This document shows positions 5,448-14,461 of a stretch of 62,218 bases of DNA, piece after piece; the first letter of the stretch is position 1; each line of letters starts with the position of its first letter. Below the pieces are notes generated by a model. The model was not told where the DNA came from and did no database searches. It saw only the letters and a list, made by a program, of their open reading frames with translations. The DNA comes from Solirubrobacteraceae bacterium (GTDB taxonomy: Bacteria > Actinomycetota > Thermoleophilia > Solirubrobacterales > Solirubrobacteraceae): contig DATAAR010000058.1 in assembly GCA_036259975.1 (NCBI GenBank), positions 1-62,218 of the forward strand. Direction: 5' to 3'. The position numbers and the translations under genes are program-made.

Positions 5448-6545
5448 ATGGCGATCGAGTTCTCCGAGCGCGTCCGGCGTATCCCCGCCTACCCCGCGGC
5501 CGACGCGTACGCGGTGCCCGACGACGTGGCGATGATGGCCTCCAACGAGTCACCCGACCCGCCGCTGCCGCAGGTCATCGACGCGATCACGCGCGTCCTC
5601 GGTGGCCTCAACCGCTATCCGGACCCGTCGAACTCGCGGCTGCGCCAGGCGCTGAGCGCGCGCTACGGCGTGCCGTCGCAGCGCATCGCGATCGGCAACG
5701 GCTCGGTCGAGATCCTCATGGCCGCCGGCGAGGCGCTGCTCGAGCCCGGCGCCGAGCTCGTCTACGCGTGGCCGTCGTTCTCGGTCTACCCGCACCTCGC
5801 GGCCGCGTCGGGCGCGACGGAGATCCGGGTGCCCCTCGACGGGGACGAGCGCCACGACCTCGAGGCGATGGCCCGCGAGATCACCGTCGCCACGCGGCTC
5901 GTCATCGTCTGCAATCCGAACAACCCGACGTCGACGGCGCTGCCGCACGACGAGATCGCGGCGTTCGTCGCCGACGTGCCCCGCCACGTCGCCGTGATCC
6001 TCGACGAGGCGTACTGCGAGTTCTCGACCCTCGACGATCCCGATGCGTCGCTGGACCTGCTCGCCAGGCACCCGAACCTCGTCCTGCTGCGCACGTTCTC
6101 GAAGGTGTACGGGCTGTGCGGGCTGCGCGTCGGGTTCGGGCTGTGCGGCTCGGAGGACTTCGTCCGCGCGGTCAACCAGGTCCGCCAGCCGTTCTTCTGC
6201 AACAGCGCCGCCCAGGCGGCGGCGATCGAGGCGCTGCGCCACCAGGACGCCGTCGCCGAGCGCGTCGAGCGGGCGGTCATCGCGCGTGTCGAGCTCGAGG
6301 AGGAGCTGCGCGCGATGGGCATCGAGCCCGCCGAGTCGCAGGCCAACTTCGCGTGGTTCGATCTGCCGGTCGCGGACGGCGAGGACGCCGCCGAGGTGGA
6401 GGCCGCAGTCGTGCGCGGGCTCGCCGAGCGTGGCGTGATCGTCCGCGCGGGCGGGGCGCTCGGCAAGCCCGGGGCGCTGCGGGTGACGTACGGGACCCCG
6501 GCCGAGAACCGGCGCTTCCTTGACGCGCTGCGCGACCTGATCTGA
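5448..6545 (+). CDS. hisC: histidinol-phosphate/aromatic aminotransferase (class II PLP aminotransferase)
   Basis: 365 aa: NESPDPPLPQV...RYPDP...NPNNPT...LRTFSKVYGLCGLRVGF (PLP lysine in SK). It sits next to aroH, so an aromatic aminotransferase role is plausible. Confidence 0.8.
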   Translation: MAIEFSERVRRIPAYPAADAYAVPDDVAMMASNESPDPPLPQVIDAITRVLGGLNRYPDPSNSRLRQALSARYGVPSQRIAIGNGSVEILMAAGEALLEPGAELVYAWPSFSVYPHLAAASGATEIRVPLDGDERHDLEAMAREITVATRLVIVCNPNNPTSTALPHDEIAAFVADVPRHVAVILDEAYCEFSTLDDPDASLDLLARHPNLVLLRTFSKVYGLCGLRVGFGLCGSEDFVRAVNQVRQPFFCNSAAQAAAIEALRHQDAVAERVERAVIARVELEEELRAMGIEPAESQANFAWFDLPVADGEDAAEVEAAVVRGLAERGVIVRAGGALGKPGALRVTYGTPAENRRFLDALRDLI

Positions 6546-6559
6546 GCGGCCGCCACTAC

Positions 6560-7570
6560 TCACTCCGTGAACAGCGCGGCGTATGCGCTCAGCGCCGGCT
6601 GCCCGCCGAGGTGCGCGTAGAGGACGTTCGCGTCGCGGTCGATCTCGCCCCGCGAGACGAGGTCGATGAGCCCGGCCATCGATTTCCCCTCGTAGACGGG
6701 ATCGGTGAGCATCCCCTCGAGGCGCCCGGCGAGGCGGATCGCCTCGAGCGTCTGCTCGTCGGGGATCCCGTACGTGCCCGCGTGGTAGCGGTCGTCGAGG
6801 AGGATCTCGTCGTCGCGCAGGTCGCGCCCAACCTCGATCAGCTGCGCCGTGCGGCGCGCGATCCGGGCGACCTGCTCCCACGTCTCGCGGGGCGTGGCCG
6901 AGCCGTCGATCCCGATGACGCGGCGCTCGCGCTCCTGCGCCGCGAAGCCCGCGATCATCCCGGCCTGCGTGCTGCCCGTGACCGAGCACACGATGATCGT
7001 GTCGAAGAAGACCCCGAGGTCGCGCTCTTGGGCCTCGACCTCGGCGGCCCAGCTGGCGAATCCAAGGCCGCCGAGCGGGTGATCGGAGGCGCCGGCCGGG
7101 ATCGCGTAGGGCTTGCCGCCGGTGGCCTCGACGTCGGCGAGCGCCTGCTCCCAGCTCTCCTTGAAGCCGATCCCGAACCCGGCCTTCACGAGCCGGACGT
7201 CGGCGCCCATGATGCGGCTGAGCTGGATGTTGCCGACGCGGTCGTAGACGACGTCGGGCCAGTCGACCCAGCTCTCCTGCACGAGCACGCACCCGAGGCC
7301 GAGCCGCGCCGCGACGGCGGCGACCTGGCGCGTGTGGTTGGACTGGACGCCGCCGATTGACACCAGCGTGTCGCAGCGGTTCTCGAGCGCGTCGGCGACG
7401 AGGTACTCGAGCTTGCGGGTCTTGTTGCCGCCGAACGCGAGGCCGCTGTTGCAGTCGTCGCGCTTGGCCCACACCGCCGCGCCTCCGAGGTGGGCCGTCA
7501 GCCGGTTGAGCCGGTGGACGGGGGAGGGGCCGAAGAGGAGCGGGTGGCGATCGAACGCGTCGAGGGTCAT
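6560..7570 (-). CDS. acdS: 1-aminocyclopropane-1-carboxylate (ACC) deaminase
   Basis: 336 aa from [17 protein letters not shown]. It is collinear with Pseudomonas AcdS as I recall it. Signature residues are retained: GGNKTRK (Lys51 equivalent), GGVQSN (Ser78), DPVYEGKS (Tyr294-Glu295), YAHLGG (Leu322). The 22 N-terminal codons of the track ORF are rejected. Confidence 0.85.
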
Positions 7571-7705
7571 GGCGTGGATTCTCATCGACCCGTCGCGCGC
7601 CGGACGGGGACTCGCGCCCGGACCCGGCCCACCCACCCGCCAGCCGCGTCGGCGGCCTACGCCTCGGCGGGCATGAGCACGCAGAGCGCGACGTAGACGA
7701 GCGGC

Positions 7706-8662
7706 TCAGCCGGCGGCGGCCGGCAGGCCGCCCATCGGCGTCGCGTGGCGCACCGCGTTGAGCGTCGCGCGCTCGACCGCGTCGACGGCGAAGACGGCGA
7801 GCACCGTCAGCGCGTCGGCCGCGGGCGGCTCGCCGCCCCTGGTCGCGAGCGCGAACGCCGTGTCGCCGTCGAACATCGTGTGGGCGGGGCGGATGACGCG
7901 GGCCAGGCCGTCGTGGGCGACCGCGGCGACGTGGTTGGCCTGCTCGACCGTGAGCGCCGCGTCGGTCGCCACCACGGCGAGCGTCGTCTGCGCGCCGGGC
8001 GCCGGCGGTTCCACACCGCCGCGGATGAGCGCGACGCTGTCGGCGAACGCGCCGGTCTCCGGCTGGCGCGCACCGGCCACGATCGCGCCGGTGACCGGGT
8101 CGACGACGTCGCCGCCGGCGTTGACGACCACGAGCGCGCCGACCGTGCTGTCGCCGGCGCGCACGCTCGCGGTCCCGATGCCGCCCTTCGTGGCGTTGAC
8201 GGGCCCCAGCATCTTGCCCACGGTCGCGCCGGTGCCGGCGCCGACGCAGCCCTGCTCCGGCGGCGCCACGCTCGCGGCGGCGGCGGCGCGGCGGCCCGCC
8301 TCCAGGTCGGGCCACGCCGGCTTGCCGAGCCCGAGATCGAAGATGACGGCCGCGGGCACGATCGGCACGCGGGCGACCCAGGCGTCGAACCCGACGCCCT
8401 CGGCGGCGAGGTGGCGAGTGACGCCCGACGCCGCCTCGAGCCCGAACGCGCTGCCGCCGCAGAGGACGACCGCGTGCGCGCGCTCCACGAGCGTGCCGGG
8501 GCGGCACAGGTCGGTCTCGCGGGTGCCGGGCGCCGGGCCGCGCACGTCGACGCCCACGACGGCGCCCGCGCGGCACAGCACCGCGGTGCAGCCCGTGAGC
8601 GCCTCCGCGTCGGTGGCGTGCCCGACGTCGATGCCGGCGACGTCGGTGATCGCGTCGTGCAT
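7706..8662 (-). CDS. P1-family peptidase (DmpA/L-aminopeptidase, MEROPS S58-like)
   Basis: 318 aa: ITDVAGIDVGHATD...TGCTAVL...VDVRGPAPGTRETDL...LCGGSAFGLEAA...GAGTGATVGK...TTLAVVATDA. Confidence 0.8.
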   Translation of the reverse strand: MHDAITDVAGIDVGHATDAEALTGCTAVLCRAGAVVGVDVRGPAPGTRETDLCRPGTLVERAHAVVLCGGSAFGLEAASGVTRHLAAEGVGFDAWVARVPIVPAAVIFDLGLGKPAWPDLEAGRRAAAAASVAPPEQGCVGAGTGATVGKMLGPVNATKGGIGTASVRAGDSTVGALVVVNAGGDVVDPVTGAIVAGARQPETGAFADSVALIRGGVEPPAPGAQTTLAVVATDAALTVEQANHVAAVAHDGLARVIRPAHTMFDGDTAFALATRGGEPPAADALTVLAVFAVDAVERATLNAVRHATPMGGLPAAAG

Positions 8663-8825
8663 GCGGGGATGATCGCGGGCGGTCGCGTGCTGGTGACGTC
8701 CCGCGCAGGGCGCTGCGGTTGTCGCGCCCCCGCTCGGTGCCCGGGGCGGCGCTCTCGTGCACCGTGGCGCTCTGGGGCAACACGCCTAGCCAGGCGAGCC
8801 GCGGTCTGCCACAATGCCCCGCTCA

Positions 8826-8924
8826 ATGGGCCGAGAGCTCGACAGCGCCCCCACCGCAGCCAGCGCCGCGCTGTCCCGCTTCGCCTACGCCTACGCCTAT
8901 CCCTTCGCCTGGCGATTTAGCTAG
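8826..8924 (+). promoter_or_regulatory. candidate leader-peptide ORF (aromatic-codon run) of an attenuator upstream of aroF-tyrA-aroA
   Basis: Read directly: ATG 8826 ... TAG 8922-8924 encodes MGRELDSAPTAASAALSRFAYAYAYPFAWRFS. Seven aromatic codons sit at every second position (TTC TAC TAC TAT TTC TGG TTT). An 11-nt perfect complement, 8924-8934 with 8978-8988, begins at the stop codon. The leader region ends at the aroF ATG (9059). Confidence 0.5.
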
Positions 8925-9058
8925 GCGCTCGGCCGGCTCCGCACGTCCAGAAGCGAGCCGCCGCGACAGGGCCCTCGGGCCGAGCGCCGTCGTTCGGGCG
9001 ATGAACGCCCCCGCAGCTCACTCGTATCGTTCAAGGCGTAACCAGGAAGGCACTTCAG

Positions 9059-10096
9059 ATGATGATCGTGATGAAGCAGACGGCGACGGAGGACGAGGTC
9101 CGCGCCGTCATCGAGCGGATCGAATCCGCCGGCGCCCGCGCCCACCGCTCGAGCGGCGAGGAGGTGACGGTGATCGGCGCGATCGGCGACCGCGAGCACA
9201 TCGCGCGGCTGGAGCTCGAGGGCAACCCCGGCGTCGACCGCGTCGTCCCGATCCTCAAGCCGTACAAGCTCGCCTCGAGCCAGATCCGCCATGACCAGCC
9301 GAGCGTGCTCGAGATCGCGGGGCGCAAGATCGGCGGCGAGCACTTCGCGCTGATCGCCGGGCCGTGCACGGTCGAGTCGCGCGACCAGCTCCTGACCACG
9401 GCCCGCACCGTCCACGCCGCCGGCGTGACGATGCTGCGCGGCGGCGCGTACAAGCCCCGCACCAGCCCCTACGCCTTCCAGGGGCTCGGCACCGAGGGCC
9501 TGCGCCTGCTCGCCGAGGCCAAGGCCGAGACCGGACTGCCGATCGTCACCGAGCTCATGGACGCCCGCGACCTCGAGCCGGTCCTCGACGTCGCCGACGT
9601 CGTCCAGATCGGCGCGCGCAACATGCAGAACTACGCGCTGCTGTCCGAGGTGGGGCGCTCGAACACGCCGGTGCTCATCAAGCGCGGCCTGTCGAGCACG
9701 CTGGAGGAGCTGCTCATGGCCGCCGAGTACGTGCTCAAGGAGGGCAATCCGAACGTGATGCTCTGCGAGCGCGGCATCCGCACCTTCGAGACCGCGTACC
9801 GCTTCACGCTCGACCTCACCGCCGTGCCGGTGCTCAAGGAGCTCTCGCACCTGCCGGTCGTCGTCGATCCCAGCCACGCGCCGGGCCGGCGCTCGCTCGT
9901 CGAGCCGCTCAGCCTCGCCGCCGCGGCGGCGGGCGCCGACGGCATCATCGTCGAGGTGCACCCGCAGCCCGAGGAGGCGATCTGTGACGGGCCGCAGCAG
10001 CTGCGCACCGAGGGCTTCGCCGAGTACGCCCGCAAGGTCGAGGCGGCCGCCGCCGTCGCGGGCAAGACCGCGTTCCTCGCCGCGGCCGCGGCTTGA
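9059..10096 (+). CDS. aroF: 3-deoxy-7-phosphoheptulonate (DAHP) synthase, type I-beta with N-terminal regulatory ACT-like domain
   Basis: 345 aa. N-terminal [24 protein letters not shown]...VIGAIGD, then the KDO8P/DAHP I-beta core: GPCTVES...[20 protein letters not shown]...IGARNMQNY...KRG...VDPSHA. The SD AGGAAGG lies 8 nt upstream. Confidence 0.9.
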
Positions 10097-11142
10097 TCCT
10101 CGCGGTCGTCGGCGTCGGCGTGATCGGCGGGTCGGTCGGGCTGGCCGCCCGCCGGCGGCTCGGCGCGACGGTCCGCGGGGTGGACCCGCGCGCCGCCGAG
10201 GCGCTCGAGGCGGGGGCGATCGACGAGGCCCACGACGACCTCGCCGCCGCGCTCGACGGCGCCGACGCCGCGTTCGTCGCGGTGCCCGTCGCCGCGCTGC
10301 CCGAGACGGTCGGCGCGGCGCTCGCCGCGGCGCCGCCGGGCTGCGTCGTCACCGACGTCGGCTCGACCAAGCGCGCCGTCGTGGCCGCCAACGCCGACGA
10401 GCGTTTCGTCGGCGGCCATCCGCTGGCCGGCTCGGAGGCCGCCGGCGTCGCGCACGCGCGCGAGGACCTCTTCGACGGCGCCGTCTGGTACCTCACGCCG
10501 ACCTCGACGACCTCCGGCCTGATGCTCGAGCGCCTGCACCGGCTGATCACCGGCCTCGGCGCTCGGCCCGTCGCGACCGACGCCGATACCCACGACCGGA
10601 TGATGGCCGCCGTCTCGCATCTGCCGCACGTCGTGGCCAACGTCCTCGTCGGCCTCGCCGGCCGCGCGCTCGACGGCGAGCGCCTCCCGCCCACCGGCCC
10701 GAGCTTCCGCGACGCCACGCGCGTCGCCGGCGCCAACCCGGCGCTGTGGCCCGACATCTACCTCTCCAACCGGGACGCGCTGCTGCCCGCGATCGACGAC
10801 ACGCTCGCGCGCCTCAGCGCCGCACGCGACGCGCTCGCGGCCGGCGACCGCGACCGCCTCGCCGAGTGGCAGCGCGCGGCCGCGGCGGAGCGCGAGGCGC
10901 TGCTCGAGGCCGGCCTGGTCGGCGGCGCCGTCCGCGAGCTGCGCGCCGTCGTCCCCAACCGGCCGGGCGTCATCGCCGACATCGCGCTCACCCTGGGTCG
11001 CGCGGGCATCAACATCTCCGACATGGCGCTCACGCCGTCGCCGGACAACACCCGCGGCGAGATCGCGCTGTGGGTGGCGGAGGGCGACGCGCAGCGCGCC
11101 CAGGAGCTGCTCGAGGGCCTCGGCTTCCCGGTGACCGCCTGA
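10093..11142 (+). CDS. tyrA: prephenate dehydrogenase with C-terminal ACT domain
   Basis: 349 aa: [14 protein letters not shown] (NAD-binding fold), [25 protein letters not shown], and a C-terminal ACT-like region [23 protein letters not shown]. The TTG start overlaps the aroF stop by 4 nt. Confidence 0.85.
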
Positions 11143-11147
11143 TCGAC

Positions 11148-12446
11148 ATGGCCACGACGCGCTTCGACCCCGCGACCCGGCTGCAGGGCGAGCTGCGCCC
11201 GCCCGCCGACAAGTCGATCTCCCACCGCAGCGCGATCCTCGGGGCGATGGCGAGCACGCCGGTCCGTGTGCGCAACTACCTCGGCGCCGAGGACACGATC
11301 TCGACGCTGAACGCGGTGCGGGCGCTGGGCGCCCGAGTCGAGCAGACGGCGGAGGGGCTCACCATCCACGGGGTCGGCCGCGCCGGCGCCCGCGAGCCCG
11401 ACGGGCACATCGACGTCGGCAACGCCGGCACGCTCATGCGCCTGCTGCCCGGCTGGCTCGCCGCCCAGGAGGGCCGGACCTTCACGCTCGACGGCGACGC
11501 CTCCATCCGCCGCCGGCCCGTCGACCGCATCGCCGCGCCGCTCGGCCTCATGGGCGCGGACGTCGAGGCCCGCGACGGGCGCCTCCCGCCGTTCACCGTG
11601 CGCGGCGCGCGCCTGCACCCGATCGCCTACGACCTGCCGGTCGCGAGCGCCCAGATCAAGTCCGCGGTCGCGCTGGCCGCGCTGTCCGCCGAGGGCGCGA
11701 CCACGATCGCCGAGCCCGCGCCCAGCCGCGACCACACCGAGCGCATGCTCGCTGCGGCCGGCGTCCGCGTGCACCGCAACGGCCGCCGCCTGACGATCGA
11801 GAGCACGCCGGACCTCGGGCTCGACGAGCTGACCGTCCCCGGCGATCCGTCCTCGGCGGCGTTCGCGATCGCCGCCGCGCTGGTCGTCCCCGGCGCCCGG
11901 GTGACCGTCCGCGGCGTGGGGACCAACCACAGCCGCAGCGGCTTCGTGCGCATCGCGCAGCGCATGGGCGGCCGGATCGAGGGCGACATCGAGGCCGACC
12001 CCGGGGACGCGATCCCGGGCTCGGAGCCGGTGAGCGACCTCCACGTCACGGCCGGCCCGCTGCAGGCCACGACGGTGGAGGCCGCCGAGGTGCCGCCGGC
12101 GATCGACGAGCTTCCGCTCGTGGCGCTGCTCGGCTGCTTCGCCGAGGGCGAGACGGTCGTGCGCGGCGCGCAGGAGCTGCGCGTCAAGGAATCCGATCGC
12201 ATCGCCACGGTCGTCGACGGGCTGCGCGGCCTGGGCGCCGACATCGAGGCCACCGAGGACGGCTTCGCCGTGCGCGGCACCGGCGTCCTGCGCGGGGGCG
12301 CGATCGCGTCGCACGGCGACCACCGGCTCGCGATGCTGGGGGCCGTCGCGGGCCTCGCCTCGCGCGACGGCGTCGTGGTCCAGGGCATGGAGGCGGCGGC
12401 CGTCAGCTACCCGGACTTCGAAGCCGACCTCGCGCGCCTGTTGTAA
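11148..12446 (+). CDS. aroA: 3-phosphoshikimate 1-carboxyvinyltransferase (EPSP synthase)
   Basis: 432 aa from [35 protein letters not shown]. Also [19 protein letters not shown] and HGDHRLAM. It is the C-terminal part of an 820 aa track ORF whose upstream part is an artefact. Confidence 0.9.
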
Positions 12447-12454
12447 TTAGGGCC

Positions 12455-14461
12455 ATGCCCGACCCGGGTCCCGCCAGCTCGCCGACCGCCCCCGCGCCCC
12501 CGCCCGACGAGGACCGCCGCGGCTGGCGGGTCGAGCCGGCGCCGGACGGGCGCGGCGCGCCGCCCGCGCCGCGGCCGCCGATGTTCCCGCGCAGCCGCCG
12601 GTTCTTCGCGATCCTCGCGGGGCTCCTCGCCCTGAATTTCGCGCTCGCGTTCTTCACCGGCGGCCCGCCCGACCGCACGCAGGTGCCGTACTCGCCGTTC
12701 TTCCTGCAGCAGGTGGAGGCCGGCAACGTCATCGAGATCTCCGCGCGCGGGGAGACGATCCAGGGCGACCTCCGCAACCCGACGAACTACACGCCGCCAG
12801 GCGAGAAGGCGACGCGGGTTGACCTGTTCAAGACCGAGGTCCCGTCGTTCGTCAACACCGAGAACCTCACCCAGGACCTCGAGAGCAAGGGCGTGGTGCT
12901 CAACGCCGAGCCGCCCGACAGCGGCCGCTCGTTCCTGGCCACGCTGTTCCTCGGCTTCGGCCCGACGATCCTGCTCGTCGCGCTGTTCATCTGGCTCATG
13001 CGCCGACAGATGAGCGGCGGCCCGGGCGGCGTGCTCGGCGGCTTCGGGCGCTCGACCGCGCGCCGCGTCACCGGCGAGGAGAACCGCGTCACGTTCGCGG
13101 ACGTGGCCGGCATCGACGAGGCCGAGAGCGAGCTCGTCGAGATCGTCGACTTCCTCAAGAACCCGCAGAAGTACCAGCGCCTCGGCGCGCGGATCCCGCG
13201 CGGCGTGCTGCTCTACGGGCCGCCGGGCACGGGCAAGACGCTGCTCGCGCGCGCCGTCGCCGGCGAGGCCGAGGCGGCGTTCTTCTCCGCCTCGGCGTCG
13301 GAGTTCGTCGAGGCGATCGTCGGCGTGGGGGCCTCGCGCGTGCGTGACCTGTTCAAGCAGGCCAAGGAGGCGGCGCCGGCGATCATCTTCATCGACGAGC
13401 TCGACGCGATCGGCCGGTCGCGGTCGGGCAACGTCGGCGGCCTGAGCGGCGGCAACGACGAGCGCGAGCAGACGCTCAACCAGATCCTCACCGAGATGGA
13501 CGGCTTCTCGCCGCAGGACAACGTCATCGTCCTCGGCGCGACGAACCGCCCCGAGGTGCTCGACCCGGCGCTCCTGCGCCCGGGCCGCTTCGACCGGCGC
13601 ATCGCCGTGCAGCCGCCCGACAAGCCGGGGCGCGTGAAGATCCTCGAGATCCACACCCGCTCGGTGCCGCTGCACGAGGACGTCGACCTCGAGCAGATCG
13701 CCGCCTCGACGCCGGGCATGACCGGCGCCGACCTCGCGCTCCTCGTCAACGAGTCGGCGCTGTTCGCCGCCCGTCACGGCGAGGACGCCGTCCACCAGCA
13801 CGACTTCACCGAGGCGATCGAGAAGATCATCCTCGGCACCGAGCGCCAGGTCGTCATGACCGACGCCGACCGCGAGCGCACGGCGTACCACGAGTCCGGT
13901 CACGCGCTCGTCGGGATGCTCACGCCCGGGACCGACCCGGTCCGCAAGATCTCGATCATCCCGCGCGGCCAGGCCCTCGGCGTGACGCTGTCCACGCCCG
14001 AGTCGGACCGCTACGGCTACGAGCGCGAGGAGCTGATCGCGAAGATCAAGGTCGCGCTCGGCGGCCGCGCGGCCGAGCGCGTCGTGTACGGCGAGACGAC
14101 CACGGGCGCGGAGTCCGACATCCAGCAGCTCACCCAGATCGCCCGCGGGATCGTCGGCCGCTGGGGCATGAGCGACGTCATCGGCCCCGTCGCCGTCATC
14201 GACGGCCGCCAGGGCGGGCCGCTGCTTCCCGGCACGTCGGATGTCTCCGAGCACACGCAGCGGCTGATCGACGAGGAGGTCCGCCGCGTCATCGAGATCG
14301 CCGAGCAGGAGACGATCGCACTGCTCGAGCGCGAGCGCGCGCGCCTCGAGGCCCTCGCCCGCGCGCTGCTCGAGCGCGAGACGCTCGACCAGCCCGACGC
14401 CTACGAGATCGCGGGCGTCGAGGCGCCGGTGGCCGAGGAGCCGGAGACCGCGCCCGCGTAG
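12455..14461 (+). CDS. ftsH: ATP-dependent zinc metalloprotease FtsH
   Basis: 668 aa: TM segments, AAA+ Walker [17 protein letters not shown], Walker [33 protein letters not shown], and zinc motif HESGHAL. It starts only 8 nt after aroA. The proline-rich N-terminal 40 aa make the exact start uncertain. Confidence 0.9.

Follow-up and report, generated by a model that had tools for sequence, protein, structure and literature searches.

Two leader elements described in Actinomycetota provide the closest precedents for the one reported here. In Corynebacterium glutamicum, aroR, a leader with a Phe-Tyr-Phe sequence, lies upstream of the aroF operon (Neshat et al. 2014), and, as cited in PMC11802643 and PMC7356990, ribosome stalling under aromatic limitation raises expression. 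In Mycobacterium smegmatis, the polycysteine leaderless small open reading frame (sORF) Ms5788A acts as a translational attenuator, in which the pairing between the codon tract and the Shine-Dalgarno sequence is obvious and was tested by mutation (Canestrari et al., bioRxiv 10.1101/834739). Leaders in actinobacteria are frequently leaderless, many of them lacking typical terminators, and the ilvB1 leader of M. tuberculosis is a classical variant of an attenuator based on an upstream open reading frame (uORF). We describe here a short open reading frame (ORF) with Phe, Tyr and Trp codons that precedes the gene of 3-deoxy-D-arabino-heptulosonate 7-phosphate (DAHP) synthase, aroF, in a Solirubrobacteraceae bacterium (assembly GCA_036259975.1, contig DATAAR010000058.1, positions 1 to 62,218 of the forward strand; this whole stretch of 62,218 nt is called the window below), together with its counterparts in related loci. 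The leader is a real, clade-wide regulatory element and a variant of the leader-peptide attenuator; that it is an aromatic-sensing leader ORF regulating DAHP synthase is, in our judgement, highly probable. Among the papers of the library searched, none was found to describe such a leader element in Thermoleophilia.

By function and gene context, the closest system appears to be aroR, which had been named as a precedent in a preliminary interpretation of the window made from its letters alone (the sequence-only reading) and is a valid one (PMC11802643, PMC7356990). Both leaders are actinobacterial, and in both a short leader ORF with aromatic codons stands directly upstream of DAHP synthase. 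In comparison with the description of aroR, the present leader comes from another class of Actinomycetota, mixes Phe, Tyr and Trp over about 12 codons, ends in an 18-nt invariant element followed by a hairpin (P1) that touches the stop codon, and fronts both class I-alpha and class I-beta enzymes. By mechanism, the closest would be Ms5788A, with which the leader shares regulatory codons at the 3' end of an sORF that is probably leaderless or nearly so, the lack of a terminator and a highly structured leader throughout, and with which it may share a codon tract that can pair with the Shine-Dalgarno region of the gene that follows, which a stalled ribosome would unmask. Ms5788A is, however, a Cys sensor, whereas the present leader would sense Phe, Tyr and Trp; the pairing in the latter is supported statistically and is weak in some loci, including that of the window, and the description of Ms5788A contains neither an invariant terminal motif nor a hairpin abutting the stop.

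The enterobacterial leaders trpL, pheL and hisL likewise consist of a short ORF rich in codons for the end product, in which a ribosome terminating at the stop codon occludes the following arm of the hairpin. Unlike them, the present leader has mixed amino-acid specificity and no Rfam match (Trp_leader, Phe_leader), and neither a hairpin with a U tract nor a segment 4 for the 3' arm was found in it. The uORFC-13-1 motif, a candidate Phe-codon uORF preceding the aroF gene of Acholeplasma (Brewer et al. 2021, PMC8632094), is similar in being found exclusively upstream of DAHP synthase (for the present leader, among the loci listed), but it comes from low-GC Mollicutes, has an evident intrinsic terminator and is unrelated in sequence and structure. 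The mixed Phe/Tyr/Trp tract, the invariant terminal block and the association with two enzyme classes set the leader apart from the systems compared.

Leader ORF, aromatic codons and candidate promoter

The leader ORF occupies positions 8826-8924 of the forward strand and consists of 32 codons and a TAG stop (8922-8924), encoding MGRELDSAPTAASAALSRFAYAYAYPFAWRFS*; 134 nt separate its stop from the ATG of the DAHP synthase gene at 9059. These features had all been read correctly from the letters, as had the absence of a Shine-Dalgarno sequence before the leader ATG, which extends to the relatives; the 5' leader would, as proposed then, be very short or absent (about 0-4 nt in the window). An alternative in-frame ATG at 8814 would give an ORF of 36 codons, but it falls within the -10 box of the promoter described below, and 8826 is therefore the likelier start.

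Using the DAHP synthase protein as a query, we collected 80 genome loci from Solirubrobacterales and other Thermoleophilia (Actinomycetota), nearly all of them from metagenome-assembled genomes; a scan of metagenomes for exact matches to an 18-mer added at least 120 matching contigs. Counts based on 160, 173, 156 and 154 loci pool the genome loci with the metagenome matches listed. An aromatic-rich micro-ORF proved to be conserved in the relatives, as expected for a functional leader in the sequence-only reading: apart from the metagenome loci (at least 120), it was found upstream of DAHP synthase in 56 of the 80 genome loci, 53 of which end in ...WRF(S/I), the other three being variants. In the genome loci with the WRF(S/I) ending, the uORF lies 83-231 nt before the start codon. 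In each of the 160 motif-bearing loci listed whose downstream sequence reaches 400 nt or more, the next gene on the same strand is that of DAHP synthase, at a distance from the uORF of 64-273 nt. The enzyme is of class I-beta, the type found in the window, in 122 of these and of class I-alpha (AroF/G/H-type, TIGR00034) in 38; among the loci listed, the motif stands before these two DAHP synthase classes and before no other gene, and the suspected tie between the aromatic-codon-rich ORF and this enzyme is thus a specific one. Overall, some 170 loci span 60-98% DAHP synthase identity.

Carriers of the leader with a class I-alpha enzyme include the loci L081, L085, L089-L091, L093-L095, L097, L101 and L103. 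About 28 of the 37 leader-bearing class I-alpha genes begin with M(M/F/I)IGM, which resembles the class I-beta start MMIVMK and suggests that the leader moved between DAHP synthase classes together with the initiation region and first codons. Thermoleophilia-like DAHP synthase loci were also encountered in assemblies labelled as Chlamydiae bacterium (L019, with a complete leader) and Bifidobacterium breve (L056), where the contigs were probably mis-binned.

In the window, the aromatic tract (8880-8918, forward strand) comprises seven aromatic codons at every second position, namely F 8880, Y 8886, Y 8892, Y 8898, F 8904, W 8910 and F 8916; the three Phe, three Tyr and one Trp at alternate positions had been recognised at the outset. 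The placement and identity of the aromatic codons vary among loci. Outside the invariant end, such codons make up 13-14% of frame 0 across the loci, as against 2-4% in the two other frames, and, position by position, they reach 20-58% between codons -5 and -13 but only about 0-3% between codons -16 and -30; the cluster as a whole spans codons -2 to -13. Taken together, codons for the three aromatic residues account for 22% of the leader tract versus 3.9% of the DAHP synthase coding sequence. The rare codons TAT and TTT are enriched 10-15-fold relative to coding sequence: TAT represents 44% of Tyr codons in the tract and 3% in the adjacent DAHP synthase genes, and TTT represents 23% and 2% of Phe codons, respectively, the GC content at third codon positions in these genes being 0.93. 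Rare, wobble-read aromatic codons confined to one frame are what a sensor of tRNA charging would be expected to look like, and RNA pairing alone fails to account for the selection of aromatic codons.

To the suggestion that the ORF is a chance product of GC-rich DNA, shaped by a (GCCTAC)x3 slippage repeat and devoid of function, we give practically no credence, as the comparative data refute it. In its favour, open frames are common in GC-rich DNA, the triple repeat, which had been raised earlier as a caveat, is specific to the window, and a single-sequence fold of the window leader is not exceptional, being no more stable than its shuffles (z = -0.88); the window sequence alone would not decide function. 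However, the aromatic clusters of the relatives contain no repeat at all, and the ORF, its frame, the aromatic cluster and the promoter are conserved, and P1 covaries, over 170 or so loci.

A candidate promoter, recognised by its agreement with consensus, is situated at 8787-8815 of the forward strand. It comprises a -35-like TAGCCA (8787-8792), a 17-nt spacer and an extended -10, TGC-CACAAT (8807-8815), in which the TG at 8807-8808 turns CACAAT (8810-8815) into the extended form. TAGCCA, the spacer and CACAAT had already been proposed as a possible promoter, and the arrangement recurs in the relatives as a TTGCCG-like -35, a spacer of 17-18 nt and an extended -10 of the form cTGcTACAAn, followed after 7-15 nt by the uORF ATG with no Shine-Dalgarno sequence visible in between. 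In 41 of the 43 genome loci in which both could be located, the ATG after the -10 box shares the reading frame of the TAG (one third would be expected), with uORF lengths of 14-46 codons across loci. The non-aromatic 5' half of the window uORF also holds an 8-bp GC-rich hairpin, GACAGCGC/GCGCUGUC (8841-8848 with 8868-8875), which could be a pause or folding element; a hairpin in this half is present in some relatives too, e.g. L042 and L118.

Hairpin P1 and the invariant end of the uORF

P1 (8924-8988, forward strand) is an 11-bp helix of a 5' arm GGCGCTCGGCC (8924-8934) and a 3' arm GGCCGAGCGCC (8978-8988), enclosing a variable insert that in the window has a stem of its own (8935-8939/8955-8959). 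The perfect 11-nt complement had been noticed in the letters, and the covariation that might be expected of a real helix was found in the relatives in the form of compensatory changes. P1 is the sole structural feature common to all loci, and it begins at the G of UAG in essentially every one of them. Its outer 7 bp are contiguous in 160/173 loci, the helix being mostly 9-11 bp long, and the insert can be as small as a tetraloop (L161) or reach about 100 nt and contain extra stems. At position 5 of the helix, 97 loci have C:G, 44 have U:G and 25 have U:A; at position 6, 74 have U:A, 19 have U:G and 73 have C:G. RNAalifold recovered the helix from 51 genome loci with 99.2% of cells paired; 29 double-change cells were counted, compared with 11.5 +/- 3.1 in shuffles (none of 500 shuffles reached 29), and sliding the partner strand dropped pairing to 27-58%. 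The UAG is placed so that a terminating ribosome covers the 5' arm of P1.

Two further pairings had been pointed out in the window. TAGGCG at the stop can indeed meet three copies of CGCCTA (8882-8899), and the hairpin GGGCG-atgaa-CGCCC is present at 8996-9010, but both are specific to the window: the former pairing is not conserved, and neither is the latter hairpin as a terminator-like element. A sub-clade of 30 loci has, unlike the window, CG(U/C)GAGCGG in a hairpin within P1 and YUC(A/G)CG 30-60 nt after P1 (members are L004, L015, L017, L018, L022, L024-L029, L032, L034, L037, L043, L059, L061 and others). GUGAG occurs with CUCAC in 22/25 of these and GCGAG with CUCGC in 3-4 of 5, which amounts to a covarying long-range contact or pseudoknot.

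The uORF ends in a nucleotide-invariant element, TGGCGATTTAGCTAGGCG (8910-8927, forward strand), which consists of the four sense codons before the TAG, the TAG itself and the initial three bases of the hairpin. Among 54 genome loci, TGG is conserved in 53, CGA, TTT, TAG and GCG in 54 each, and A(G/T)C in 49; CGA represents only 5% of Arg codons in neighbouring genes. The core CGATTTAGCTAGGCG is kept in L048, L050 and L051, where TCG or GCC replaces TGG (Trp to Ser or Ala). The motif of the block occurs once in the 62-kb window, and its position is locked to the stop codon, whereas its distance to both promoters is variable. The last four residues, W-R-F-(S/I), are the only conserved part of the peptide; the sequence-only reading gave this WRFS end correctly but overlooked its conservation at the nucleotide level, rare codons included. 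No pairing partner for the block was found in the region after P1 (z = -0.22) or in the P1 insert. A natural stop-loss variant exists in the divergent leader of L046, where, about 150 nt before the DAHP synthase start, CCCCGG stands in place of AGCTAG; the uORF there continues as ...WRFPRVLGTAATR* across the 5' arm of a helix resembling P1.

A conserved peptide end of this kind raises the thought of an arrest peptide. TnaC and SpeFL are arrest peptides that stall at their own stop codon, and the ribosome held there controls the downstream RNA. By the same token, W-R-F-S and UAG could form a sensor in which a bound free aromatic amino acid blocks release at UAG, and the parked ribosome would determine expression by keeping P1 open. 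In both cases the C-terminal peptide is conserved and the stop after it fixed, W-R-F-(S/I)-stop being all that is conserved of the peptide; the stop is always the UAG specific for release factor 1 (RF1), and the hairpin abuts it. We nevertheless hold this explanation to be very improbable. Conservation in the present leader acts on nucleotides and reaches synonymous sites (a single one of the six Arg codons, CGA, in 54/54 loci and TTT in 54/54), the Trp gives way to Ser or Ala in L048, L050 and L051 with the rest retained, and the variable upstream cluster of rare aromatic codons, which points to the sensing of tRNA charging and not of a ligand, would be left unaccounted for. We also know of no sequence similarity to known arrest peptides.

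Another explanation for the block is a programmed slow-decoding or termination module of a new kind, made up of UGG-CGA-UUU-A(G/U)C-UAG and the hairpin starting in the stop, which we regard as distinctly doubtful. It would combine rare codons read by wobble, a stop recognised by RF1 alone and a helix encountered by the ribosome helicase just during the decoding of Trp, Arg and Phe. If true, such a module could govern how long the ribosome dwells at the end of the sensor ORF, or dock a trans factor or ligand, and would add a second input to the leader-peptide attenuator. It appears to be portable and seems to have been transferred, along with the five initial codons, between two DAHP synthase classes that are unrelated. 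Whatever the case, an invariant rare-codon block of 15-18 nt lies outside what current attenuator models account for.

Several other candidate roles for the block were considered and rejected. Pairing of GCCUGG with a CCAGGC box near the Shine-Dalgarno sequence is not general, as the box is present in only about 47/153 loci, and its covariation with codon -5 is weak (G-C 25, A-U 2, U-A 1, at least 9 mismatches). A local hairpin CCUGGC/GCUAGG inside the block would consist of invariant bases only and is broken in L050, the variant sequences having been read by eye. Mimicry of tRNA was dropped: GCGAUUUAGCU resembles a tRNA 5' end, and ARAGORN found nothing in the leader, the window or 40 loci. 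A DNA operator is not in keeping with a block that is not palindromic (read by eye) and has variable promoter distances and a fixed stop distance, and no X XXY YYZ heptamer of a frameshift site was seen by eye.

Output of the proposed attenuator

We consider it rather probable that the leader works by ribosome-mediated attenuation, sensing aromatic amino acids and controlling DAHP synthase mainly at translation. The initiation region of DAHP synthase (9034-9061, forward strand) contains AGGCGT (9034-9039), the Shine-Dalgarno sequence AGGAAGG (9044-9050) and the ATG (9059-9061). In the minimum free energy (MFE) fold of the window, the Tyr codons at 8893-8898 pair with 9034-9039 and positions 8889-8892 with 9048-9051, so that the pairings of the tract flank and partly cover the Shine-Dalgarno sequence. 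Across all loci, the 3' part of the uORF pairs with its own ribosome-binding region at -23.9 kcal/mol, compared with -22.0 +/- 0.23 kcal/mol for cross-locus combinations; with genome loci only, the figures are -23.6 and -22.0 +/- 0.38 kcal/mol, and none of 50 permutations reached the own-locus value. The aromatic tract alone gives -14.0 with its own Shine-Dalgarno region against -13.0 +/- 0.2 across loci. Watson-Crick runs of 7 bp or more were found in 20% of own pairings but in only 6.6% of those across loci; for runs of 8 bp or more, the shares were 11% and 2%, respectively. Clear cases of complementarity are L047, with GCUUCUCCUA and UAGGAGAAGC, as well as L003, L090 and L161.

The ribosome was simulated as a 28-nt mask in partition-function folds, from which the unpaired probability of the Shine-Dalgarno core was taken. 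Accessibility increased only for masks whose A site fell within codons of about -10 to -4. For an A site at codon -6, the rise was from 0.39 to 0.47 (p = 7e-8), compared with 0.40 at the stop and 0.37 at early codons. In the window, the corresponding probability was 0.29 for the free leader, 0.58 with the ribosome stalled on the tract and 0.29 both at the stop and at early codons. A Shine-Dalgarno switch by the opening of P1 alone was rejected, MFE accessibility being unchanged (9.2 vs 9.1 unpaired nucleotides). As to the unmasking of the ribosome-binding site as the main output, we find the balance close to even.

The sequence-only reading had pointed to alternative pairings in a candidate attenuator, with the caveat that no U tract follows the hairpins. 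The caveat was justified, both for P1 and for the hairpins of the window leader, and a classical arrangement of terminator and antiterminator lost ground: the 3' arm of P1 has no partner downstream, with no excess complementarity to the downstream leader over shuffles (z = -0.13), mutually exclusive antiterminator and terminator pairings sharing one strand were not seen, and the evidence favours masking of the ribosome-binding site. A search of the window leader for U-tract hairpins found none, and T-rich 8-mers occur in only 21/156 leaders, mostly inside the -10-like box discussed below. More generally, a search for canonical promoters and terminators found none in the leader and none above chance in the whole window, with 4 canonical terminators over positions 1-60000 against about 7.6 expected from shuffles; the organism seems not to use canonical intrinsic terminators, and their absence from the leader therefore says little and is still compatible with transcriptional attenuation. 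P1 as the terminator itself was rejected on logic, since stalls at the principal aromatic positions, codons -6 and -7, would leave P1 intact and give repression under starvation.

Attenuation at transcription could take the following form. P1 would be an antiterminator blocked by a ribosome at the stop, and under replete conditions transcription would stop short of DAHP synthase, through a hairpin that has no U tract or by Rho loading on the C-rich, ribosome-free leader. The geometry is that of the classical segment 2, as the 5' arm of P1 is the roughly 11 nt under a terminating ribosome; the leader is indeed C-rich (C/G of 1.1-1.3 vs 0.77 in coding sequence), termination in a genome without canonical terminators must be non-canonical or Rho-dependent, and a uORF attenuator of such a type is used by M. 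tuberculosis ilvB1. This explanation has to contend with the missing excess of complementarity for the P1 3' arm, the lack of complementarity between the invariant motif and the downstream leader or P1 insert, the scarcity of leaders with any T-rich 8-mer and the shortest leaders, in which P1 and the start codon are no more than about 40-50 nt apart. We deem it unlikely, albeit an alternative to be taken seriously.

Between P1 and the Shine-Dalgarno sequence lies a proximal -10-like box, TATCGT, a possible second promoter (9025-9030, forward strand). The caveat that a promoter here might bypass the leader holds, as a TAnnnT box stands at this place in about two thirds of loci, although the position given for TATCGT, 9024-9029, was off by one. 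With a variable interior, TAnnnT is located 26-40 nt before the DAHP synthase start in 29/37 class I-alpha and 75/117 class I-beta loci (104/154), and only 5 times elsewhere in 13,448 nt of leaders. By its sequence it looks like an actinobacterial -10 element, and transcripts starting from it would carry the Shine-Dalgarno sequence and not the uORF, so that part of the expression is probably unattenuated.

Such a uORF-less transcript is also implied by an explanation in which the uORF and P1 form a separate transcript, a dual-function small RNA or small-protein messenger ending at P1, that would act in trans, itself or through its peptide, on DAHP synthase mRNA made from the proximal promoter, with ribosome occupancy of the aromatic tract modulating the pairing. 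A stable hairpin right after the stop resembles a 3'-terminal stem, the complementarity between the tract and the same locus's ribosome-binding site would serve in trans as well, and in Sinorhizobium the attenuator RNA rnTrpL and the leader peptide peTrpL are known to act in trans. However, strict same-strand adjacency (64-273 nt in 160/160 loci listed) is needed by a cis element and not by a trans factor, the TAnnnT box is missing from about a third of class I-beta loci and from the shortest leaders, no U tract follows P1, and the peptide is unconserved except for its last four residues. We regard action in trans as improbable.

Returning to attenuation at translation, the proposed course of events is as follows. 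The extended -10 promoter would give a leaderless or nearly leaderless mRNA with the uORF as its first cistron. With charged aromatic tRNAs plentiful, ribosomes would reach the UAG and then leave. Since the 5' arm of P1 has the stop codon's final base as its first nucleotide, the helix is proposed to be unwound only while a ribosome occupies the last codons and to re-close on release; the vacated aromatic tract would then pair around the Shine-Dalgarno sequence of DAHP synthase and keep its translation low, and Rho-dependent polarity or mRNA decay may follow and amplify the repression. With Phe-, Tyr- or Trp-tRNA in short supply, a ribosome would stall on the tract and cover it, the ribosome-binding site would be freed and DAHP synthase translated, with tyrA and aroA following by coupling. 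The proximal -10 box probably provides an unattenuated basal transcript. P1 may, speculatively, be a fast-nucleating clamp for re-closure, or a roadblock that slows the decoding of UGG-CGA-UUU. Comparison of sequences establishes the conservation of the ORF, its codon bias, P1 with its covariation and the link to DAHP synthase; from this conservation we infer that the uORF is translated, that ribosomes stall in it, that the ribosome-binding site is masked and that P1 has a clamp role.

Several observations weigh against this course of events. The masking signal is statistical, modest and heterogeneous, about 1-2 kcal/mol, with a mean change in accessibility of 0.04-0.08, an obvious contiguous anti-Shine-Dalgarno segment is present in only about 20-40% of loci, and in the window the Shine-Dalgarno core is only partly covered. 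In the class I-alpha group, RNAalifold found P1, an inner hairpin and a local stem of 4 bp, and no basal helix. The proposal accounts neither for the nucleotide invariance of CGAUUUAGCUAGGCG nor for the abutment of P1 on the stop codon, and the proximal -10 box could leave most of the DAHP synthase mRNA independent of the leader. Finally, in a window without canonical terminators, a leader without one does not speak against transcriptional attenuation.

The aro operon, its surroundings and implications

The genes downstream of the leader had been taken for aroF-tyrA-aroA, and matches in Pfam and NCBIfam agree. The regulated operon (9059-12446, forward strand) comprises a DAHP synthase of class I-beta whose N-domain is ferredoxin-like (9059-10096), a prephenate dehydrogenase (tyrA) with an ACT domain (10093-11142) and the 5-enolpyruvylshikimate-3-phosphate (EPSP) synthase aroA (about 11139-12446), all on the forward strand. 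Four nucleotides are common to the end of the DAHP synthase gene and the start of tyrA (10093-10096), and likewise to the end of tyrA and the likely start of aroA (11139-11142); these overlaps suggest translational coupling along the operon. FtsH (12455-14461) follows after the operon. Upstream of the leader, a Peptidase_S58/DmpA-like gene (7706-8662, reverse strand) is transcribed divergently, and the leader therefore needs a promoter of its own; the upstream neighbours further include a PLP (pyridoxal phosphate)-dependent enzyme (6560-7636, reverse strand) and a class I/II aminotransferase (5448-6545, forward strand). An Rfam scan of 8400-9400 gave five listed matches at chance level, with E = 1.3-9.1 and about 15-17 bits, far below the gathering scores of 40-95.

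The leader may be used as a natural joint sensor for Phe, Tyr and Trp, and its approximately 170 natural variants provide a comparative set for uORF attenuation without canonical terminators. The regulation of the entry step of the shikimate pathway has been essentially unknown in Thermoleophilia, which are abundant and mostly uncultured soil Actinomycetota, and the signature of the leader could serve to annotate the control of DAHP synthase in hundreds of their metagenome-assembled genomes.

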